Source: a virus | Taxonomy: Duplodnaviria; Heunggongvirae; Uroviricota; Caudoviricetes | Direction: 5' to 3' (one strand) | Virus record (IMG/VR): IMGVR_UViG_3300035698_035307 | Coordinates: 23,521 to 87,520 of that record | DNA length: 64,000 bases | Part shown: positions 18,371 to 55,866 of the stretch, piece by piece | Layout of the letters: each line of letters begins with the position of its first letter | How positions within the stretch are numbered: the first letter of the stretch is position 1 | Program-made: the position numbers and the translations under genes | Notes under the pieces: generated by a model | The model's input: the letters and a program-made list of their open reading frames with translations, nothing else | Databases searched by the model: none | What the model was told of the DNA's origin: nothing

Positions 18371-19981
18371 TTATTTATATAAGTTTTTTAAAGCTTCTGA
18401 ATTAGCTAAAAGATTTCTTATGTTTGATATGTTGTGTTCTACTTTTTCTTGAGTTTCATCAGCTGTTGATTCTTTCTCTTTCCAGAATGATACAGAAATT
18501 TCACCTTTGTCGTTAGCAGTAGTTGGTTTTACTTTCTTAATAATATCTTTCTGTTCATATTTATCTAACTCTTCAGTAGATGGTGTTGATTTTGACCAAC
18601 CTGCATCTTCTAATTCTTTAGCTTTTGTTTCATATTCGCTATTATCAATTTCTTCTGGAGTATCTTCTTCTTTCTTTTCAGGTTCTTCTTCTTTCTTTTC
18701 AGGTTCTTTCTTTGTACCACCTGCATCTCCTAAAGCTTTTTCAATATCATCAATTGCTCTTGATTGAGCTGATACTTCTTTTGCAGCTGCATCATAGCCA
18801 GCAGTATCACCATCTTCTTTAGCCTTGTTCATTTTTTTAACAAGTACTTCCTGTTCACCTTTTGCAATGTCTAAATCAGCTTGTGCCTTTTCAGCATCAG
18901 AAGGTCCTTTTTCTTCGTCTTTAACTTTAGATGTTGCATCAGTATCAGCTGTTCCACCAATCTTTGTGATTTTATCTAAATATTCTTTTTCTTTTTCTTG
19001 ACTAACCTTTCTTGCGTCTTCTTTATCCATCAACTTATTAATATCTGTAATAATAACCTGTCTCTTATGAAGTAACTTATAAAGGTCTTTCTCTAATTCA
19101 TCAATCTTATCTGATGCAGCTTCATCTACACTTTCTTTCTTTACAAGGTTTTTAAGTTTAGAACCAATTCCTCCACCGTCATCGTCTTCAGCATCTTGCT
19201 TATCTTCTTTCTTTTTATTTTCAGCATCTTCTGCATCTTTCTCTTCAGCTTCAATTTCTCCACCAGCTGCTTCAATATCTTTTGCAACTGCTTCGATGTT
19301 TTTATTAATTCCATCTATTTTTCTTATAAGAGGTGCAACTTTTTCTGCAGAACCATCTTTAACATCTTTAGTGTCAGCTTTAAGCTTATCAGTCTCGTCC
19401 TTTAACCCTGCTTCTAATTCTGTAGAGGCTTGTTGAAGTTCTTTATGTTTTAATTTGAGTTCTTTAATCTTATCAGGAGCTAATTGAAGTATATCTGCAT
19501 TGTCAAGTTTGGTTTTTGCAATGGCAGCTTCTGAATCAGCTTTGTATTTTTGATGTATTCTACCTAAATATTTAGAACCACCTATTTTATCTGTAAGTTC
19601 TTGTTCCATTTTTTCTATCTGAGCCTTTCTGTGGTCAGCTTGTGCATGGAATTTATCAGTTTGTTTCTTAAGCTTTTCTTTTGCACCTTTAGCTTTTTCT
19701 GGGTCCATTTCAGCTATGTCAGCTTTCTGTTTAGAAATTGCAACCTGATGATTAACGTCTTCTATCTTCTTAGAACCAATAGCTAAAGTAGCTTGTTTAA
19801 CTTTCTTAGCTTTTCTTAGATTTGATATTGCTTTAAATATACCAAACCCTAACAATCCAGCACCACCAATTGCAACTCCTGCTGCAGTCTTAGCTGTGCT
19901 GAATCCTTTATCTAATAACGCACCTAAGTCCTGGTCTCCTTCGAAAAGAACATTAGCTTCGTCAATTATTTCAGTTAGACT
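18371..19981 (-). CDS. Charged coiled-coil head/core protein, downstream (-1) frame of the scaffold-like gene
   Basis: The frame is open from the A9 run (19981) to 18371 (536 aa). The track start at 19855 is only a TTG, and the first ATG is far inside the ORF. K/E/D-rich, with VDE and LFE sites. Confidence 0.7.
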   Translation of the reverse strand, partial: SLTEIIDEANVLFEGDQDLGALLDKGFSTAKTAAGVAIGGAGLLGFGIFKAISNLRKAKKVKQATLAIGSKKIEDVNHQVAISKQKADIAEMDPEKAKGAKEKLKKQTDKFHAQADHRKAQIEKMEQELTDKIGGSKYLGRIHQKYKADSEAAIAKTKLDNADILQLAPDKIKELKLKHKELQQASTELEAGLKDETDKLKADTKDVKDGSAEKVAPLIRKIDGINKNIEAVAKDIEAAGGEIEAEEKDAEDAENKKKEDKQDAEDDDGGGIGSKLKNLVKKESVDEAASDKIDELEKDLYKLLHKRQVIITDINKLMDKEDARKVSQEKEKEYLDKITKIGGTADTDATSKVKDEEKGPSDAEKAQADLDIAKGEQEVLVKKMNKAKEDGDTAGYDAAAKEVSAQSRAIDDIEKALGDAGGTKKEPEKKEEEPEKKEEDTPEEIDNSEYETKAKELEDAGWSKSTPSTEELDKYEQKDIIKKVKPTTANDKGEISVSFWKEKESTADETQEKVEHNISNIRNLLANSEALKNLYK

Positions 19982-20688
19982 TTTTTTTTATCCTCATCTT
20001 CCTCAGCTTCTTCAGCTGCGGCAGCTTCTTCTTCTTCCTTAAGTTTCTTAGCTTCTGCTTCTTCCTCTAATTTCTTAGATTCTTCAAGTTCTTCTTCTTT
20101 CTTCTTAGCTTCTGCTTCTTCTTCCTCTAATTTCTTAGATTCTTCAAGTTCTTCTTCTTTCTTCTTAGCTTCTGCTTCTTCTTCTTCCTTAAGTTTCTTA
20201 GCTTCTGCTACTTTTTTAGCTTCTAAAGTTTCTTCGTCTTCTTCTTCGTCATCATCATCTGACTTAGTTGCTGCAGCTTTTTCTTCTTCTTCTTTCTTCG
20301 CAGCTGCTTCTTTTTCTTCTTTCTCTTTATCAGCTTCTTCGCCAGATTTTTCAGAACCTTCTTCTTCGTCGTCATCGCCTTTTTTCTTTTCGGCATCTTC
20401 TTCCTCATCAGATTCTTCTTCTTCGTGCTCATCGCCTTCTTCACCTTCTTCTTCCATTTGGCCTACAAATTCTTCAAAAGACATTATCTTATTAAATTCG
20501 TTAAGACTAATTACAGTGTCTGCAGTTTTGTGTGCTACATAAAGTTCAAAGATTTCTTCATTCATATGCTGAACATATAATGATTCTTCTATATTACTTT
20601 CATTCAATGATTTGAACTCATCAAATACTGGTGATTTATTTTCTTTAATACAATTATCGATATAACTGTCAAGTACTTTAATTTCCAT
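19975..20688 (-). CDS. Highly acidic prohead core/scaffold-like protein
   Basis: E/K low-complexity repeats and LNE/IEE sites; lies just downstream of the major capsid gene. ATG 20688 is 24 nt below a GATATATA motif (the track start is a TTG). Confidence 0.7.
   Translation of the reverse strand: MEIKVLDSYIDNCIKENKSPVFDEFKSLNESNIEESLYVQHMNEEIFELYVAHKTADTVISLNEFNKIMSFEEFVGQMEEEGEEGDEHEEEESDEEEDAEKKKGDDDEEEGSEKSGEEADKEKEEKEAAAKKEEEEKAAATKSDDDDEEEDEETLEAKKVAEAKKLKEEEEAEAKKKEEELEESKKLEEEEAEAKKKEEELEESKKLEEEAEAKKLKEEEEAAAAEEAEEDEDKKKV
20038..20200. repeat. Tandem ~60-bp coding repeats (EAKKKEEELEESKKLEEE)
   Basis: Two near-identical copies are flanked by two EAKKLKEEEE units. Confidence 0.85.
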
Positions 20689-20870
20689 ATTGTACAATTT
20701 TTTTCTTTGTTTATATATCTCTGACAAATACTCGAACCATTGTCAAAATTAGCTGAGAACCCAGCTGGTTTATCATGTCTTACTTAAGTTATTACAATAG
20801 AATGAATCTACATCATTGTGCGAACTGACCTAATCAGTCTAATTAGTATTTCAATGGTATCATATAACCC

Positions 20871-20920: not shown

Positions 20921-22615
20921 TTAAATCATTTGGAAAGTGCTGAAGTCAACACCGAATGTGTAGTAATATAATTGAGGGTGGAAACCTGCTTCAACTAATG
21001 CATATCTAGACTTGATAGCAATTTTAGGAGCCATTGTTCCTTCTGCAATTGTAGATACTGATTCTGCCATTAAATAAGGCATGAATACAAGACCTGGTGA
21101 ATTACCGTCACCTTTTCTTCCAACTAATACTCTGTTGTCATTCCAACCCATATATGGGTCAACGTATACTGTTACGCCTGCTACTTGTCCTACTGGATAA
21201 AGTGAACCACCTTGTTGATTAAACGTGTTGGCCATTGCGTAAGGTACGAAACCTGAGATATCTTGTAAAGCTGTTGCAACTTGTCCGTTAGTTACTGCGA
21301 AGTTTGCTGCTCCTCTTCTACCTCTGATTGATACAAGGTTACTTGCTGCTAAAATTCTAGAAAGAATTTGTCTTTGAAGTGTTCCTTTGTTATCACCTGC
21401 TGTTGGTGTTGATGCTGGTACATTACCAGTAACTACTGCATTTCCTTCGTTGTCGTTTCCTAATGCGAAAGTTGTAGTACCACCTGTTGCGATGTATAAT
21501 GAAAGCTGAGTGCTATCATAAGCTTCAATCTGGCTATTATTAGTGTTACCTAATGCGAATAATCTGTCTAAGATATTCTTGTTAATTGATTGAGTAAGTT
21601 CGTTAGTAAGAATTGCTTCTACTTGAGCTACTGCGTCAATACCGAATTGTTTTAAATCTTGGATTTGCTCTCTAGTAACTGCTGCTGCTACTTGGAAAGT
21701 TTTAGCTTCAACTGACTTGTTGAATAAACTAAGACCCATAATGTTATCTTGTTGTGATTCACCTTCGCCTCTTGAATAAGGAGAGTTAGAATTAAACGTA
21801 GAACCAGCAAGTCCTGATAATCCGCTACCTGAGAATCCAGTAATATGGTCTTCAAGTGCTTTTACTAATTCAGCTGCACCGTCTATTTCTAGAACATCAG
21901 TTGATGCATTCTGTGTAGTATGGTTAGAGAATAAGCTATTACCTGCTGTAATTGCCATACCTAATGTGTCGTTAGGAGTTGCAAGACCTTTAGCATAAGT
22001 AGTTGCAGCAACACCTGTTGAAGTTTCTACTTTAAAGATTGGATAGTTATCAATTCTAGAGTTACCTACAAAGGTTAATCTGAATGTTGCAGTTGTTGAA
22101 CCAGCTGCTATTTGTGTGTATGCTACATCACCTTCTGCTAATGCCGCTGCTCCAGTTGATGCTGTTGCTGGGAATTTAACTAATAATGGTGCTTCAGTTC
22201 CATCAGTTCCACCTGTTACAGCGCCGATAGTACCACCTGCATATACAAAGTCTAAATAAGTCATCATTCCAAGAGGACCACTCATTGGAATAACAGGTAC
22301 TAAATCAAGTCCAATAGTTTGTGCTGCTACTTGCAATGCAAGTGGAAGTAAACTATAAGCTTTGTCACCAGAACCAGTTGTTTGGCTAGTGAATGCATTT
22401 TGTGTACCTGGGTCACCTGGAAGTGTTACTGGTCCCATACCTGGAACGTTCATACCTGGATTAAGGTGTACTAAGTTGTTCGCATCTTCGTAAAGATTGT
22501 GAAAGTGAGCGTATTTCGACATCCAACCAAGTTTATTAGCGTCTTCAACGCCAGTTGCTTCCTTGATAATAGGAGTCCATGTTGCTCTAACTTCTGCTTC
22601 GTTTATAAGTTTCAT
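20921..22615 (-). CDS. gp23: Major capsid protein
   Basis: 564 aa with TIGLDLVPVIPMSGP, EINQSIN-like ELTQSINK, GLVFMPY, PKIAIKSRYAL. Confidence 0.95.
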   Translation of the reverse strand: MKLINEAEVRATWTPIIKEATGVEDANKLGWMSKYAHFHNLYEDANNLVHLNPGMNVPGMGPVTLPGDPGTQNAFTSQTTGSGDKAYSLLPLALQVAAQTIGLDLVPVIPMSGPLGMMTYLDFVYAGGTIGAVTGGTDGTEAPLLVKFPATASTGAAALAEGDVAYTQIAAGSTTATFRLTFVGNSRIDNYPIFKVETSTGVAATTYAKGLATPNDTLGMAITAGNSLFSNHTTQNASTDVLEIDGAAELVKALEDHITGFSGSGLSGLAGSTFNSNSPYSRGEGESQQDNIMGLSLFNKSVEAKTFQVAAAVTREQIQDLKQFGIDAVAQVEAILTNELTQSINKNILDRLFALGNTNNSQIEAYDSTQLSLYIATGGTTTFALGNDNEGNAVVTGNVPASTPTAGDNKGTLQRQILSRILAASNLVSIRGRRGAANFAVTNGQVATALQDISGFVPYAMANTFNQQGGSLYPVGQVAGVTVYVDPYMGWNDNRVLVGRKGDGNSPGLVFMPYLMAESVSTIAEGTMAPKIAIKSRYALVEAGFHPQLYYYTFGVDFSTFQMI

Positions 22616-22663: not shown

Positions 22664-24493
22664 TTAATATTTACCATTCATTCTTTTAACAGATTGGATT
22701 ATATATTGCGCTTTCGATTCGTCAATTGCGGTATTTTCAACTTTCGCTGTAGTTTTACTTTCATTAACTTTCTCAATTACAATAGAAACATCTCTTAAAT
22801 CTCTTGTTTGCCAGAAATTATCAATCTGGTACTGAGTGTCTAATTTTGAGTATTTCGATTCGGCTATAATCTGATTCTTTTTAGCTTCGCTTAATTTATC
22901 CCATGTTTCACGGTATTCTGTTCCCATGTCTCTGATAAATCCAAGACCATCATTCTTTTCCTCTGGCTTAATTGCCGTTTCATAAATCTGTTCTACTTGT
23001 TCTTTATTAAAGTAGTTCTTGCCTTCAAACGCCTTTACAACGACGGTTTGTTTTTCTGCATCAAGTGCATAAAATCCGTCTTGCTTCTCTTTTGGTAAAA
23101 ATTGCATGAAATGCATTGTACCTTCTACTGTTTGCTTCTTAGCAGATTCGAGAATCATATTTAATTTTTCTGAAATTTCTTCTTTATAATCTTTTGGTTT
23201 AGTTTCCACTTTTGTATCGTTTGTGTTCGTATTAGTATTCGCATTCTCTTCAACATGAACTGCTGCAGATTTGTTTACGAATTTGTTGAATTTTTCTCCA
23301 ACTGTATTTGAATAGTTACCAACGTTCTCAAGATTACCTTTAAGGTATTCGGTATAGTTAACGTGCTTGTTAAAACCTTCACCTAAATAGTTTGTATATT
23401 TAGCTAAATCATTTGAACTTTCACCTATATATTTTGAGTATTCTTTTATTTGGTTTGCTCCAGTTGCTACGTGCTCAATATACTTAATTGCTTTTTCTAA
23501 TTCTGCACCTTGATACTCACCAAAGTTAATACCTTGATTAGTCTTTTCTGCAACGTGGTTTAAATGTTTTACTACGGTTTCTAATGTTTCGCTTAAGTAA
23601 TTGCTAAATTCTACAGATTTGTTAGCACCTTCGCCAACATGTCCTGAATAATCTTTAACTTTATTTAAACCTTCAGTAAGATAATTGTTATGACTAACTA
23701 ATTTATCTACGTTACCACCGATATAGTTAACATATTCAAATAATTGATTAACCTTCTGTGCTATTGCTTCAGAATATTCAATACCTGATTCTGTTTTGGT
23801 TTCTTTCAGTGCACCTTTTAAACCAGTGATTTCTTCTGAAATATATTTTGACCATTTTTCAAAATCCGGAGTTGAAACAAATTTATTATCTTCCATGTTC
23901 TCAGGGTTATTTTCTTTAATATATGTATCGCGGAAAAAGTCTTCTGGTACTTCAAAAACATGAACGTTATCATCATTTGTAAAACCGTACTGCTCATTCA
24001 CTCTTTTCAGCTGTGCATTTGCAAATCCAGGGTCAGCAACTAAGTCATAAGTAAATAATTTCTTAATTCTAACGTGTCCATTAGATTCTACAACACCTGC
24101 TGCTCTAGATGAGATATGAAGTGGTACGCCACCTTCTGCAAGTGCTTGGGCTTCTTTACCATGTGTAGTATCCAGTAATCTGATTCTTCCTAATACTTGT
24201 TTAGATTCTTTATCGTATTCTAGTTTCTCTATAACGTGTGAAGCTTTTGATAAAGAAACGTCAAAGTTTTGTGGATGGTCTAATTCACCTAATAATGTTC
24301 CAGCGCCAATTTTCTCTTGTAAGCCTTCAATCTGTGGTAAATATTCTGATTCATCATATATTCTTCCGTTCTTATTCTTGACTCCTATTTCGCCAAAAAT
24401 ACCTTCAAACACATAATTACCATTTTCATCCTTCTGTACCTGTACAGCAGGAGCTGTCTCTAAAATTAGAAGGTGTTTTAATTGTTCTGACAT
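22664..24493 (-). CDS. gp21: Prohead protease fused to a scaffold-like coiled coil
   Basis: The first ~170 aa carry NKNGRIY, GELDHP, SHVI, ISSRAAG and DLVADPG. The remainder is a 14-residue-periodic helical region. Confidence 0.9.
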   Translation of the reverse strand: MSEQLKHLLILETAPAVQVQKDENGNYVFEGIFGEIGVKNKNGRIYDESEYLPQIEGLQEKIGAGTLLGELDHPQNFDVSLSKASHVIEKLEYDKESKQVLGRIRLLDTTHGKEAQALAEGGVPLHISSRAAGVVESNGHVRIKKLFTYDLVADPGFANAQLKRVNEQYGFTNDDNVHVFEVPEDFFRDTYIKENNPENMEDNKFVSTPDFEKWSKYISEEITGLKGALKETKTESGIEYSEAIAQKVNQLFEYVNYIGGNVDKLVSHNNYLTEGLNKVKDYSGHVGEGANKSVEFSNYLSETLETVVKHLNHVAEKTNQGINFGEYQGAELEKAIKYIEHVATGANQIKEYSKYIGESSNDLAKYTNYLGEGFNKHVNYTEYLKGNLENVGNYSNTVGEKFNKFVNKSAAVHVEENANTNTNTNDTKVETKPKDYKEEISEKLNMILESAKKQTVEGTMHFMQFLPKEKQDGFYALDAEKQTVVVKAFEGKNYFNKEQVEQIYETAIKPEEKNDGLGFIRDMGTEYRETWDKLSEAKKNQIIAESKYSKLDTQYQIDNFWQTRDLRDVSIVIEKVNESKTTAKVENTAIDESKAQYIIQSVKRMNGKY

Positions 24494-24563: not shown

Positions 24564-26135
24564 TTAAAAATCAATATCGTCTTCGCTTCCGTCGCCTGCA
24601 TCATCTGCTTTTTTCTTCTTTATGGCTGCGTTTTTCTCTAAATCAGCTGGGGCCATTTTTAAGAATCGTTTGATTAAAAAGTCGAGGTCGAAGTAAGGTA
24701 CGTCATTCATATCTTCATCAGTTTCAACTAAACTGTCTCTCATTGTAGATATAAAATCAACTCTCTTCTCGAAGATTTCCATTTCTTTTAATTCAGCGAA
24801 CATGTTTTCTTCATTGAATTGAAGTGCTACGCTAGTTTGAAATGCTGAGTCTTGTTTAAGTTCAGGAAATTTAAGTGCCATCTGTAAAAATAAAGGCTTA
24901 ACTAATATCTCTTGGAAACTTGAACGAAGTCTTCTTATAAATTTAGCAAATTTTATTTCTTCTCTTATTAAACCATCTGCTGACATTTCGTAAGTTGCTG
25001 GGCTTTCTGTATCGAATCTACTGAAAGGAATTTTAGAAGCTAACTTTAACTTATCATCAAAATATTTTAGTGCATCAGTGTCACTTAAGTCTGGACCTTC
25101 ATTTGCTAGTGTTTCAATTTCAGGAGAATCTCCATCTTTTTGTGGTAACCAATATTCTTTATTGAACTGCATCATTGGCTTACCATTTACTTTAAGGTCA
25201 GCTGATTCAAAATCGAAGTCAACCACCTCTCTATAATTCTGCATTAACTGAGCTAACGATTGTTTCGCTCTAGTTTTAGATTTACCACCTACTGGAATAA
25301 TAAACTTCATCTTGAAAGAAGCATTTGTCACAGCCCATATAACACGAGTGTGTTCCATTATTCTTAATAAGTTGAATGAACGTACTAAACGTTCTACATA
25401 GCTTACTCTAGAAGCTGTTGTAATAGAACCGTAAGATAAGTATATGATTTGTGAATCAAACATCATTCTCTCTTTTCCTGGTACATCTTTAAACTGATAC
25501 CAAACTTTCTTATTGGTTTGTTTATCTACTCCTGGTACAAGTGTAACTGCATCAAGTTCTTTAAAACCAATAATCTCATCTTGCTTATCATTGTAGATAA
25601 TTTCAAATGCAAGGTAGCCGTCGATTAACCACTTTCTAAAGTAGTACCATGCTGACTGGTCTTGATTGAAACCAAAATATTGGTAAATGTTATTAAATGC
25701 TTTGTTCATGTACTTCTCAACGTTCTCAGGAACATCAAGGTTTAATAAGTCGCCATAAGCAAAGTAATTCTTACTGTCGTATACTATTGTCTCATCACAA
25801 AGCGTATCAAGGATGTCCTCGATTTCATCTTGCATTGAGAATATTCTAAGTTGTTCTCTTTTTTCTTGGTAGTCTCTATCAAAGAAGCCAATTTTCTTCT
25901 TAAAAGAAATATCACTCATTGAAAGGGCCGCAAATGGGTACCATAAGTCATCATCTGCTACGCCAAATGGATTTATATTCGTATATCCAATTTGGTCTTC
26001 TATAATACCAATACCTTGAGAATTACGAATAACCATGTCATCGTATTTCATTCCGAATGAACTTAAATCTTGTAAGGATTTCGAAATTTTTGTAGGAGCG
26101 CTGAACGGTCCAAATCTATCTAACCAACCTGGCAT
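24564..26135 (-). CDS. gp20: Portal protein
   Basis: 523 aa with WLIDG, SYVERLVR, RVIWA, YWLPQKDG...EIETL and KIPFSR. Confidence 0.93.
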   Translation of the reverse strand: MPGWLDRFGPFSAPTKISKSLQDLSSFGMKYDDMVIRNSQGIGIIEDQIGYTNINPFGVADDDLWYPFAALSMSDISFKKKIGFFDRDYQEKREQLRIFSMQDEIEDILDTLCDETIVYDSKNYFAYGDLLNLDVPENVEKYMNKAFNNIYQYFGFNQDQSAWYYFRKWLIDGYLAFEIIYNDKQDEIIGFKELDAVTLVPGVDKQTNKKVWYQFKDVPGKERMMFDSQIIYLSYGSITTASRVSYVERLVRSFNLLRIMEHTRVIWAVTNASFKMKFIIPVGGKSKTRAKQSLAQLMQNYREVVDFDFESADLKVNGKPMMQFNKEYWLPQKDGDSPEIETLANEGPDLSDTDALKYFDDKLKLASKIPFSRFDTESPATYEMSADGLIREEIKFAKFIRRLRSSFQEILVKPLFLQMALKFPELKQDSAFQTSVALQFNEENMFAELKEMEIFEKRVDFISTMRDSLVETDEDMNDVPYFDLDFLIKRFLKMAPADLEKNAAIKKKKADDAGDGSEDDIDF

Positions 26136-46449: not shown

Positions 46450-46473
46450 AAAAGCGAACTACAGTTCGCTTTT
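46450..46473 (-). terminator. Terminator overlapping the stop of the last accessory-block gene
   Basis: 10-bp stem AAAAGCGAAC/GTTCGCTTTT. Confidence 0.7.
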
Positions 46474-46713
46474 CTTTTTCTTTTTCTTCTTCTTTTTCTT
46501 CTTGACAGGTTCCTCTTCAGGAGGAATATACATTGGGCTGTCACCTGAACCAGGTTTCTGTAATGAAAGTGGACCATCTGGAGCACCAGGCAATGAAACT
46601 TTACCCATGCCAGGTACTGTCATACCAGGATTAAGACTTGCACCACCTACAACATCTTCATTTGCAAATTCTTCAAATGTGAATAACTTAAAGGTTGGTT
46701 TAGTGTCTTTCAT
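46459..46713 (-). CDS. Small protein: capsid-targeting-like leader, major-capsid N-arm copy and poly-Lys tail
   Basis: FTFEEFANE; LNPGMTVPGMGKVSLPGAP...GSGD; K10 run. Confidence 0.75.
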   Translation of the reverse strand: MKDTKPTFKLFTFEEFANEDVVGGASLNPGMTVPGMGKVSLPGAPDGPLSLQKPGSGDSPMYIPPEEEPVKKKKKKKKKKKSEL

Positions 46714-46714
46714 A

Positions 46715-47776
46715 CTATAAGCCTTTCATTTCATCTGCTAATTCCTTAGCATTTTCTTTAGCTACTTTTGGGTCATATTTACCAGCATGTCTACTTTTCA
46801 TATACTTCATTAAATCGCTAGCTTTCATTTTACCAGACTCAGCCATTGCTTGACGGATATCATCTTCTGACATTTCGTATTCTTTCGCTTCATTAACTTT
46901 TCTACTTCTAGCTTTCCATATTCTACTACCAGTTTCTGAAAGTGCTACCATACCACCTTTAACTTTGAATAAGCTTGAATTATTTCTAACCCATCTTTTT
47001 GAAAGATTAAATTCTGCTACGATTTTATCAAATTCTACTTGACTCATTTTCTTATCAGCCATAACTTCTAGAATCTTATCTCTTACTCTACCATGAAGAC
47101 CTGCTGATTTTGAAGGGTGATTCTCAGTATACTGCCTCTTGTATTGTACCTTCTTAGCTTCGTTCAAATCTTCTACACTACTGTTAGCTAGAGATTCTAA
47201 TTTAAGTTTCTTTCTTGCAATTTCATAATCTGCACCAGTTATTATGGCTTCTTCGTCATCAAATTCATCAGCTATTAAATCACGTAATTCATCGTCTGTT
47301 TCAATACCTAAAGATTTTGCACGCTTCATAAGCTTTTTGAACTGAGGAGTTGTGCCTTCATTAATACATTCTTCTAAATATTCAAAAGAACCTAAATCAG
47401 CTTCTTTGATAGTCAATGCATTTACTAAATGTCCTTTAAAGTATTTTGAAAAGAAAGCTTTGTTTTCCTTTGGCATTGGTTCTGGCATTGTATCATCGCC
47501 ATCTATAACTTCTTCGCCAGGTGGCCTATGGTCAATCATGATATCAATAATGTCCTCTTCATCCATATCTATAACATAAACATCTTTAGCTTTATATTTT
47601 ACTGAATCTCCTTCAGAATTAAGCTCAATTGCTAATTTGTCACCTTTTACAAAATCTACTTTACCAGCGTATTTCCAATCAGTAGTAACCACCATTCGCC
47701 ATCTTAAAAAATTATAATCTTTAGCTTCATTTAAAGACTCTTTAAAGTCTTCGAATAACATTACGTGTTGTTTCAT
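46715..47776 (-). CDS. Multi-module probable head protein with a C-terminal YqeY-like helical domain
   Basis: Leader MLFEDFKESLNE; internal INE/LNE/VNE sites; C-terminal MSEDDIRQAM...DLMKYMKSRHAGKYDPK. Confidence 0.65.
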   Translation of the reverse strand: MKQHVMLFEDFKESLNEAKDYNFLRWRMVVTTDWKYAGKVDFVKGDKLAIELNSEGDSVKYKAKDVYVIDMDEEDIIDIMIDHRPPGEEVIDGDDTMPEPMPKENKAFFSKYFKGHLVNALTIKEADLGSFEYLEECINEGTTPQFKKLMKRAKSLGIETDDELRDLIADEFDDEEAIITGADYEIARKKLKLESLANSSVEDLNEAKKVQYKRQYTENHPSKSAGLHGRVRDKILEVMADKKMSQVEFDKIVAEFNLSKRWVRNNSSLFKVKGGMVALSETGSRIWKARSRKVNEAKEYEMSEDDIRQAMAESGKMKASDLMKYMKSRHAGKYDPKVAKENAKELADEMKGL

Positions 47777-54340: not shown

Positions 54341-54366
54341 ATTTTAAAGTTTATTTTTTTTATATA

Positions 54367-55866
54367 TCAAAATCTCACTACTTTAATGTCGTATGGAAAC
54401 TTCTGTTCTTTATAGATTCTTAATCTTTCCTTTGCATGTTTGAACAAATAGTTCTCATAGCCTTCATATCTAAAGTCATCAACGAAGTCAATGATTATAA
54501 GAAGTTCTTTACCTTCAAGCTTTCTTAAGCCTCTTCCAATACTTTGTCTAACAACTACATCAGACTTAAATGATTCAGTAAATAATACGTAGTGGATATT
54601 CTTAACAGATATACCAGTACTGAAAGTTCCAAAAGAAGCTACAAGAACTACATCTTCACCTGCTTCCATTTTAGCTTTGTAAACTTCTCTCATTTGTTTA
54701 TCAGTGTGACCATCTACATAATATACTTGCTTATCTGTATCGTTTCTTAGTTGGTTGTAAATAGCTGTACCATGTTCTCTCCTGTGGAAAAGCACCAGTG
54801 CGTTTTTATTTAACTTACCTATTAATTTGCAAATGAAATTTCTTCTACTTTCACTTTCAATGATATAATTTTGTTCAAGATTAAATACTTTCTTACCGTC
54901 CGTATTTGGGTCTTTCGCTAGACTCTTAAATGCATCTTTAGTTTTTTCATCAATGTAATCCATGTGAATAATCTTAGCTTTACATTTAGCGATGTAATCA
55001 TTCTTCTGTAAGAAGTTGGCTGTAATCTCAGACATTAATGGTCCAGTATGTGACATAAGTGTAAGTCTATCAAGAGTTCCCTTCTTAGGGATAGTTCCAG
55101 ACAGTCCAAAACAGTAATCATTCTTCTTGCAATTATCAAGAATGTCTTTAATTGATTTAGCTTTTACTTTATGAGTCTCATCTACCATTACTACATCAAA
55201 GTCATCGTAATATTCTTCCTTCTTTTTAACAAGTGATTGATATGTACCGATAACAAAGTCGCAGTCGTCTTTGATTTCTTGACCTGCATAAATTTGTTGT
55301 ACTTTATATTTTACTTTACCTCTATAATTGTATTCGGCAAAATCTTCAGTCCCTTGTATTACTAAACTTACGTTAGGTACAATAAGAAGGAATTTATTAG
55401 CCATACCATGTGCTTTAAGGTAAGCGAATATGATAAAAAGTATGAATGTTTTACCAGCTGAAGTAGCTAGTTCTGCCATACATCTTCTATATTTTATAAT
55501 TTTAAAGGCTGTTTCTAATTGATAAGGTCTTGGTTTAAGTGGATTGTCTGCAAAAAATATATCACACCAATTTTTGAACGATTCGTAAGTCAAACCATTA
55601 TTAAATATCGCACTTATATTCTTAAGCTGAATTGGATATTCATGTTCTTTCGCTATGTCATATACTTCGCGCCATAAACCTGACTGAACATATTTGTCAT
55701 GCTTAAAAAAGCTGAAGTAACCATCCCAAATCTTTTTCTTAACAAGTGGGTGAAACTTCCAGTTCTTTATTCTTTTCGTTAATGAAATATTAAGCTGGTC
55801 AATTTCAATTGAAGTTGCCTGCTCAAGAATAAGCCATCTTTTATCTTCTGATAAGTTAAATATCAT
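54367..55866 (-). CDS. uvsW: SF2 DNA helicase
   Basis: PRPYQ, ATSAGKT, DETH, GLSGT, GTFSTGI and QSIGRGLR motifs. Confidence 0.93.
   Translation of the reverse strand: MIFNLSEDKRWLILEQATSIEIDQLNISLTKRIKNWKFHPLVKKKIWDGYFSFFKHDKYVQSGLWREVYDIAKEHEYPIQLKNISAIFNNGLTYESFKNWCDIFFADNPLKPRPYQLETAFKIIKYRRCMAELATSAGKTFILFIIFAYLKAHGMANKFLLIVPNVSLVIQGTEDFAEYNYRGKVKYKVQQIYAGQEIKDDCDFVIGTYQSLVKKKEEYYDDFDVVMVDETHKVKAKSIKDILDNCKKNDYCFGLSGTIPKKGTLDRLTLMSHTGPLMSEITANFLQKNDYIAKCKAKIIHMDYIDEKTKDAFKSLAKDPNTDGKKVFNLEQNYIIESESRRNFICKLIGKLNKNALVLFHRREHGTAIYNQLRNDTDKQVYYVDGHTDKQMREVYKAKMEAGEDVVLVASFGTFSTGISVKNIHYVLFTESFKSDVVVRQSIGRGLRKLEGKELLIIIDFVDDFRYEGYENYLFKHAKERLRIYKEQKFPYDIKVVRF

Follow-up and report, generated by a model that had tools for sequence, protein, structure and literature searches.

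The 84-aa gene, its operon, and its match to the capsid protein

The window, i.e., the whole stretch of 64,000 nucleotides analyzed here, belongs to a virus record of 151.5 kb; this record is best represented in sequencing runs from salt-lake metagenomes, and it may originate from some of these. On the minus strand it carries an 84-aa gene (46459–46713; ORF call, BLASTP, and family profiles), whose product consists of a leader, a copy of the capsid N-fist, an acidic stretch, and a Lys tract. The CTS-like leader, aa 10–19 (46657–46686, minus strand), contains a hydrophobic-x-x-F-x-x-F motif and runs up to a putative prohead-protease site, E19; its aromatic residues three apart, followed by Glu, form a CTS-type motif as in CTS-bearing head proteins, and the same motif recurs at the starts of other late genes. 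The sequence-only reading that preceded this analysis had called the leader packaging-like, and it does resemble the T4 capsid-targeting sequence (CTS), where residues 4 and 7 are required (PMC9026906). The N-fist copy, aa 20–58 (46540–46656, minus strand), extends up to GSGD, as delimited by BLASTP, ORF comparison, and the tracking analyses below. The Lys tract in the translation occupies aa 71–81 (46471–46503, minus strand) and has 11 lysines, one more than previously counted.

The gene is the seventh and last in a tightly packed operon (gaps of 1–15 nt) that also contains CTS-bearing cargo-type enzymes. At the head of the operon lies a late-promoter-like motif, GATATATA (54361–54368, minus strand); the coding strand has 27 copies of it, the opposite strand 1, and the portal and protease genes are also preceded by it. 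The promoter-like motif and the operon structure suggest that the 84-aa gene may be a late gene. A terminator-like hairpin (46450–46473, minus strand, from sequence) covers the last codons and the stop, with a run of T after it on the coding strand. The same hairpin is present at three related loci (L010, L011, and L012), and it is probably because of this common terminator that they share their last residues with the window protein. By eye, the 176-aa fist carrier of G005/G007 has an N-terminal domain resembling a segment of the 353-aa gene immediately upstream of the 84-aa gene (46715–47776, minus strand), which suggests module shuffling among neighboring CTS-bearing genes. Outside the window, a 120-aa protein (G000:C1:142571–142933, minus strand) has two CTS-like motifs, GATATATA upstream, and GSGD near its end, and lacks the fist core.

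The head genes are also on the minus strand: a gp23-family major capsid protein of 564 aa (20921–22615; phrog_138, PF07068, T4 gp23 as the top Foldseek match), a gp21-type prohead protease, the presumed processing enzyme (22664–24493; phrog_207), and a gp20-type portal (24564–26135; phrog_213). The window comes from a huge T4-type phage, and its capsid is closest, in GenBank, to those of an uncultured phage of 462 kb (58%), the Lak megaphages (41%), PTm1, and PAU. Just after the capsid gene, positions 19975–20727 (minus strand) encode a strongly Glu/Lys-rich repeat protein with its own GATATATA motif and no PHROG match, a candidate scaffold or core protein. A gp23 paralogue of 369 aa outside the window (G000:C1:14752–15861, minus strand; 38–39% to capsid aa 279–544) has neither N-arm nor insertion domain, is preceded by the GATATATA motif 25 nt upstream, and is possibly a vertex or minor capsid protein.

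The match to the capsid N-arm, reported earlier as 15/19 residues, was recomputed with the same result: aa 27–45 of the mini-protein (LNPGMTVPGMGKVSLPGAP) against capsid aa 51–69 (LNPGMNVPGMGPVTLPGDP), with 41/57 identical nucleotides in the underlying DNA (46579–46635 and 22409–22465). Extended by BLASTP, it comprises 23/49 identities between mini-protein aa 19–65 and capsid aa 43–91 (E 1e-10 for this pair only). Comparison of the capsid with the complete ORF set of the 151.5-kb record leaves just the 84-aa protein (E 3e-7) and the gp23 paralogue below E 2. Both elements are closed by GSGD (aa 55–58 of the mini-protein, aa 81–84 of the capsid; 10 and 12 residues past the 19-mer), and in both a conserved Leu stands 8 residues after the Glu, E19 and E43, respectively; the translations thus bear out the shared GSGD and Glu spacing. 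At P3 of the site, the mini-protein has Ala and the capsid has Leu. Cleavage after E19 by the prohead protease may be inferred; in PAU, N-terminal sequencing maps the capsid cut to no more than one residue from the matching Glu (520 reported versus 521 computed; PMC5646251).

The likeness begins at the protease-site Glu and ends at GSGD, ahead of the first helix of the capsid. The N-fist of T4 gp23 comprises residues 66–91 (PMC7136217); capsid T100 aligns with T4 residue 106, hence D84 falls near T4 residue 90, where the N-fist ends. In this alignment, the copy and capsid aa 44–84 (22364–22486, minus strand; the segment after E43) both correspond in position to the N-fist, which in gp23-type proteins lies after the protease cut and before the first helix. 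AF2 yields no confident fold for the mini-protein (pLDDT 66, pTM 0.24), and pLDDT is under 50 for capsid residues 36–139. Neither Pfam nor PHROG has a family for the 84-aa protein, and its ESM Atlas matches are unnamed viral clusters only.

Family, distribution, and tracking of the cognate capsid

Profiles were required to recover the family; with single sequences as queries, neither viral contigs nor GenBank phages show a standalone relative of the 84-aa protein. The profile search yields 62 clusters, including one capsid fragment (P0150), which was excluded from the family; P0007 was rejected as an unrelated repeat protein. Close family members lie directly upstream of dUTPase and DNA polymerase, and family genes are usually found among replication and cargo genes, distant from head genes. 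In five orthologue cores, pS is 0.54–0.75 and pN is 0.20–0.33 (uncorrected), i.e., pN is less than half of pS. The 84-aa gene is real, as seen from its conserved position, purifying selection, and more than 60 related clusters.

The fist module occurs on varied carriers (DUF3008, a phrog_2859 domain, a coiled coil); DUF3008 (PF11450) is the N-terminal domain of many members and is absent from the window's protein. A basic tract (at least 5 K/R in 10 residues) follows the core in 76/77 members, and a CTS-like motif is present in 66/77, before the core in 23 and after it in 45; the members are related, so that these counts are not independent, and the background for the motif is 8–9% of random 35–40-aa windows, while the downstream window scanned in members is 70 aa. 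The protease-site Glu is kept in 74% of copies and invariant in 73 capsid homologues (E43). Copies in Lak and G028 start right at the fist and have no leader, and several copies lack the fist middle and the capsid's invariant Val-x-Asn-x-x-His stretch, both ends being retained.

Nine genomes that are complete or nearly so carry the copy; LR745206 and LR756502 have two each, the second (L220 and L221, respectively) being about 170 aa long. In PTm1 it forms the C-terminal part of ORF-299 (L179:979–1812), a gene between portal and protease. Both PTm1 ORF-299 and PAU gp148 (L183:10053–10718) have a phrog_2859 domain and a portal gene before them; the fist copy is in PTm1 only. No copy was detected in the complete genomes of PAU, MA9V-1, pT24, and MaF61, each searched with its own capsid arm, while the same search recovered the copy in the controls PTm1 and Lak-A1; hence, the copy is not universal. 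In LR756501, a short ORF (L175; 714073–714159, minus strand) has GSGD and a Lys tract only and is possibly a decayed copy.

Tracking was assessed in 17 genomes or contigs that carry the copy together with the capsid gene, collapsed to 11 lineages that include Lak megaphage, cultured PTm1, and phages of 462–735 kb. The own capsid is the top-scoring match of the copy in 9/11 lineages (permutation p 5e-6, the floor of the test). Departures from the capsid consensus common to copy and capsid number 52 in cognate pairs versus 16.1 in shuffled ones (p 1e-5), e.g., NTIGVGDPVP in the copy and NTLGVGDPVP in the capsid of Lak, or FPGNAGTTTAFH and FPGNPGTTTQFH, respectively, in G005. The copies of Lak-A1, LR745206, LR756501, and PTm1, the four most distant, were first found with a profile lacking their capsids. 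In the tree, which rests on 38 columns and has long branches, the copy pairs with its own capsid in PTm1, Lak, and LR756501 at 98–100% bootstrap, and one clade holding all copies is rejected (AU p 0.0004). The exceptions are G017/G018 and G024, where the own capsid is not ranked first, and the window genome, where three near-consensus capsids tie for rank.

The copy therefore tracks its own capsid, imperfectly, over deep divergence; co-variation with the cognate N-arm, which the sequence-only reading had proposed looking for, is seen in the ranking, in the shared non-consensus residues, and in the tree. At identical residues, the same codon is used in 109/223 cases against an expectation of 101 from codon usage in this genome; with codon identity at the chance level, the likeness is kept at the protein level, and recent gene conversion or DNA copying is rejected. 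Either co-evolution at a shared binding site or old re-duplications with later selection fits the tracking, and under both the fist sequence would have to be functional. The view of the mini-protein as a copy of the mature capsid N-terminus is strengthened by both the selection (pN below pS) and the tracking. The second copy of LR745206 retains a stretch present in the LR756502 capsid and lost from the LR745206 capsid, i.e., tracking lags.

Possible role and competing explanations

We lean, if only slightly, toward a peptide that is targeted to the head, trimmed by the protease, and bound to its own capsid protein at the N-fist site. The 84-aa protein would be a late, low-copy head protein, carried into the prohead by its CTS-like motif, by analogy with T4, and cut after E19 by the gp21-type protease, giving a free N-terminus as in the mature capsid protein. 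The N-fist copy would then dock on the fist-receiving surface of its own capsid where no capsid subunit provides a fist. The Lys tract would sit where the capsid chain continues into the shell and may remain inside against DNA; alternatively, the acidic stretch before it could let the protease remove the tail. The tracking of the own capsid, the likeness kept at the protein level, the sharp end at GSGD, the CTS-like motif in 66/77 members, the capsid cut near the matching Glu in PAU, the build of T4 gp61.1 (see below), and the position of the PTm1 carrier gene between portal and protease count for this reading. Ala at P3 before E19, the usual location far from head genes, the imperfect tracking (G017/G018, G024, and the three-way tie), the few columns and long branches of the tree, and the four genomes where no copy is detected count against it, as do the searchable literature, with no member reported in a virion, and the PDB, with no matching chain.

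As the five portal-flanking positions are the only such vacancies in every gp23-type head, they would be the likeliest site of the copy, and loss of the fist middle with both ends kept suits a partial site. The available parts of two accounts of the T4 portal vertex count against this site: one describes five disordered distal N-fists and mentions no extra peptide (PMC7136217), and the other likewise makes no mention of one (PMC12929629). Binding at the portal vertex is thus a tentative proposal, on the whole doubtful, and we place the same low confidence in its general form, that gp23-type phages, from T4 to those with the largest genomes, encode a trans-acting capsid arm that co-evolves with the capsid and completes contacts where the portal replaces five subunits. 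Two suggestions of the sequence-only reading need revision: contacts of the N-arm on the capsid interior, since the T4 fist finishes on the outer capsid surface, and docking at ordinary vertices, which is less likely given that complete genomes with a single gp23-family gene keep the copy.

The main rival, which we consider unlikely, is a transient regulator of assembly or maturation: the copy would compete with the capsid N-terminus for protease, scaffold, or portal, tune the timing of cleavage or expansion, and then be degraded and lost. The cleavage-site context together with the CTS agrees with this, as does the T4 fist, which is internal and disordered until the shell expands (PMC9546572); the PTm1 carrier gene adjoins the protease gene, and loss after use would account for the lack of a peptide in mature-virion maps. 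Conservation, however, reaches about 40 residues beyond the cut, well outside the protease subsites, and the leaderless Lak and G028 copies mimic the product rather than the substrate. An improbable option is that the copy acts as a decoy for a protein, of the host or of a parasite, that recognizes the capsid N-terminus, in capsid-sensing defense or in redirection of assembly by a satellite, perhaps injected like T4 internal proteins. Capsid-triggered defenses exist, e.g., Lit and CapRel; a decoy would equally need to track its own capsid, and the operon shared with CTS-bearing cargo-type enzymes and the patchy occurrence across phages would suit it. But a copied trigger would tend to activate the sensor, the segment limits are unchanged over hosts from Prevotella to Escherichia coli, and the T4 copy stops at residue 93–94, just ahead of the Lit-activating Gol peptide (residues 94–122).

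Still less probable is that the copy provides the fist in trans for a vertex or minor capsid protein that has none; the recipient would be the 369-aa gp23 paralogue in the window's virus and gp24 in T4. The late-promoter-headed paralogue without an N-arm and the absence of a fist from gp24 speak for it, but only one gp23-family gene is present in each of LR756500, PTm1, and G028, which retain the copy. The copy thus does not need a vertex protein without a fist; reliance on a gp24-like protein is rejected, and the explanation is largely refuted as a general account. The least probable of these alternatives is a by-product, capsid-gene fragments being occasionally copied into CTS-bearing basic filler proteins with the fist part idle. 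This would agree with shuffling of the module over many carriers (DUF3008, the phrog_2859 domain, the coiled coil) and with its lack in some genomes, but it is already disfavored by amino acids that are kept while synonymous sites are at chance, by pN below half of pS, and by the same segment limits from T4 to 735-kb phages.

Comparison with known systems

T4 gp61.1 (NP_049649.1; PHROG 1823, long form PHROG 2086) has the same build as the window protein: a 10-residue CTS-like leader (MKTFKEFIKE), a Glu-Asp site, a copy of its own gp23 N-fist, Pro, and a Lys run. It is identical to gp23 57–93 at 17/37 positions (E 6e-9 for this pair only). Its gene lies among replication genes, upstream of primase, while the close relatives of the window gene are upstream of dUTPase. 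Direct comparison of gp61.1 with the window family gives no sequence match (hhalign probability 0.1, no PHROG match), as expected if each copy follows its own capsid; the window protein is thus judged to lie outside the gp61.1 sequence family, yet to be built alike. No PDB chain matches either mini-protein family. Matches to gp61.1 are found in 1433 GenBank phage records, some of which may be capsid genes. A long-form homologue in Acinetobacter phage AB1I1M-1 (L229:1171–1650) is annotated 'putative capsid component', the basis being absent from the record. The PHROGs give the gp61.1 family no assigned function; hence, gp61.1 is a parallel to the window gene, not an explanation of it. The literature on N-arm mimics, the N-fist, gp61.1, and vacant portal-vertex sites, covered mostly outside subscription papers, yielded no description of a capsid mimic, and the searchable literature reports no family member in virions.

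T4 head assembly is textbook material, and still a conserved T4-type gene copying the capsid N-fist has no assigned function. The same design occurs in jumbo phages of the Lak and PTm1 type, with the copy following its own capsid across deep divergence. A trans-acting arm, if true, would be an overlooked head component, missed through its about five short copies per virion, shaped like the capsid's own arm. Should the copy close off the portal vertex or set the timing of expansion, the head-assembly pathway would gain a component, with possible relevance to how very large heads stay stable. A hypothetical gene becomes testable in two cultured phages, as T4 gene 61.1 and PTm1 ORF-299.

The T4 internal proteins IPI–IPIII, CTS-bearing and gp21-processed head cargo, are likewise small and basic and carry both a CTS-type motif and a Glu at which they are cleaved (PMC9026906), the matching site of the window protein being putative; they are late, as the window gene probably is. 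In the window family, in contrast, the payload is the capsid's own arm, and the motif is after the core in 45/77 members, not N-terminal. With the N-fist of processed T4 gp23 (gp23*), the copy shares the position in the capsid protein, which opens at the protease cut and closes just short of the first helix, but it is free-standing, with a lineage-specific sequence of about 40 residues; the gp23-family N-fist binds four neighboring subunits in the expanded shell. Like the cement protein Soc of T4, whose binding site adjoins the fist (PMC9546572), the window protein would strengthen capsomer junctions; however, Soc is folded, high-copy, and joins from outside after expansion, whereas the window protein has no predicted fold of its own and carries signals for loading inside. 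Among these systems, we assign the window gene to the class of CTS-bearing head proteins, as a putative variant whose cargo would be the arm of its own capsid.
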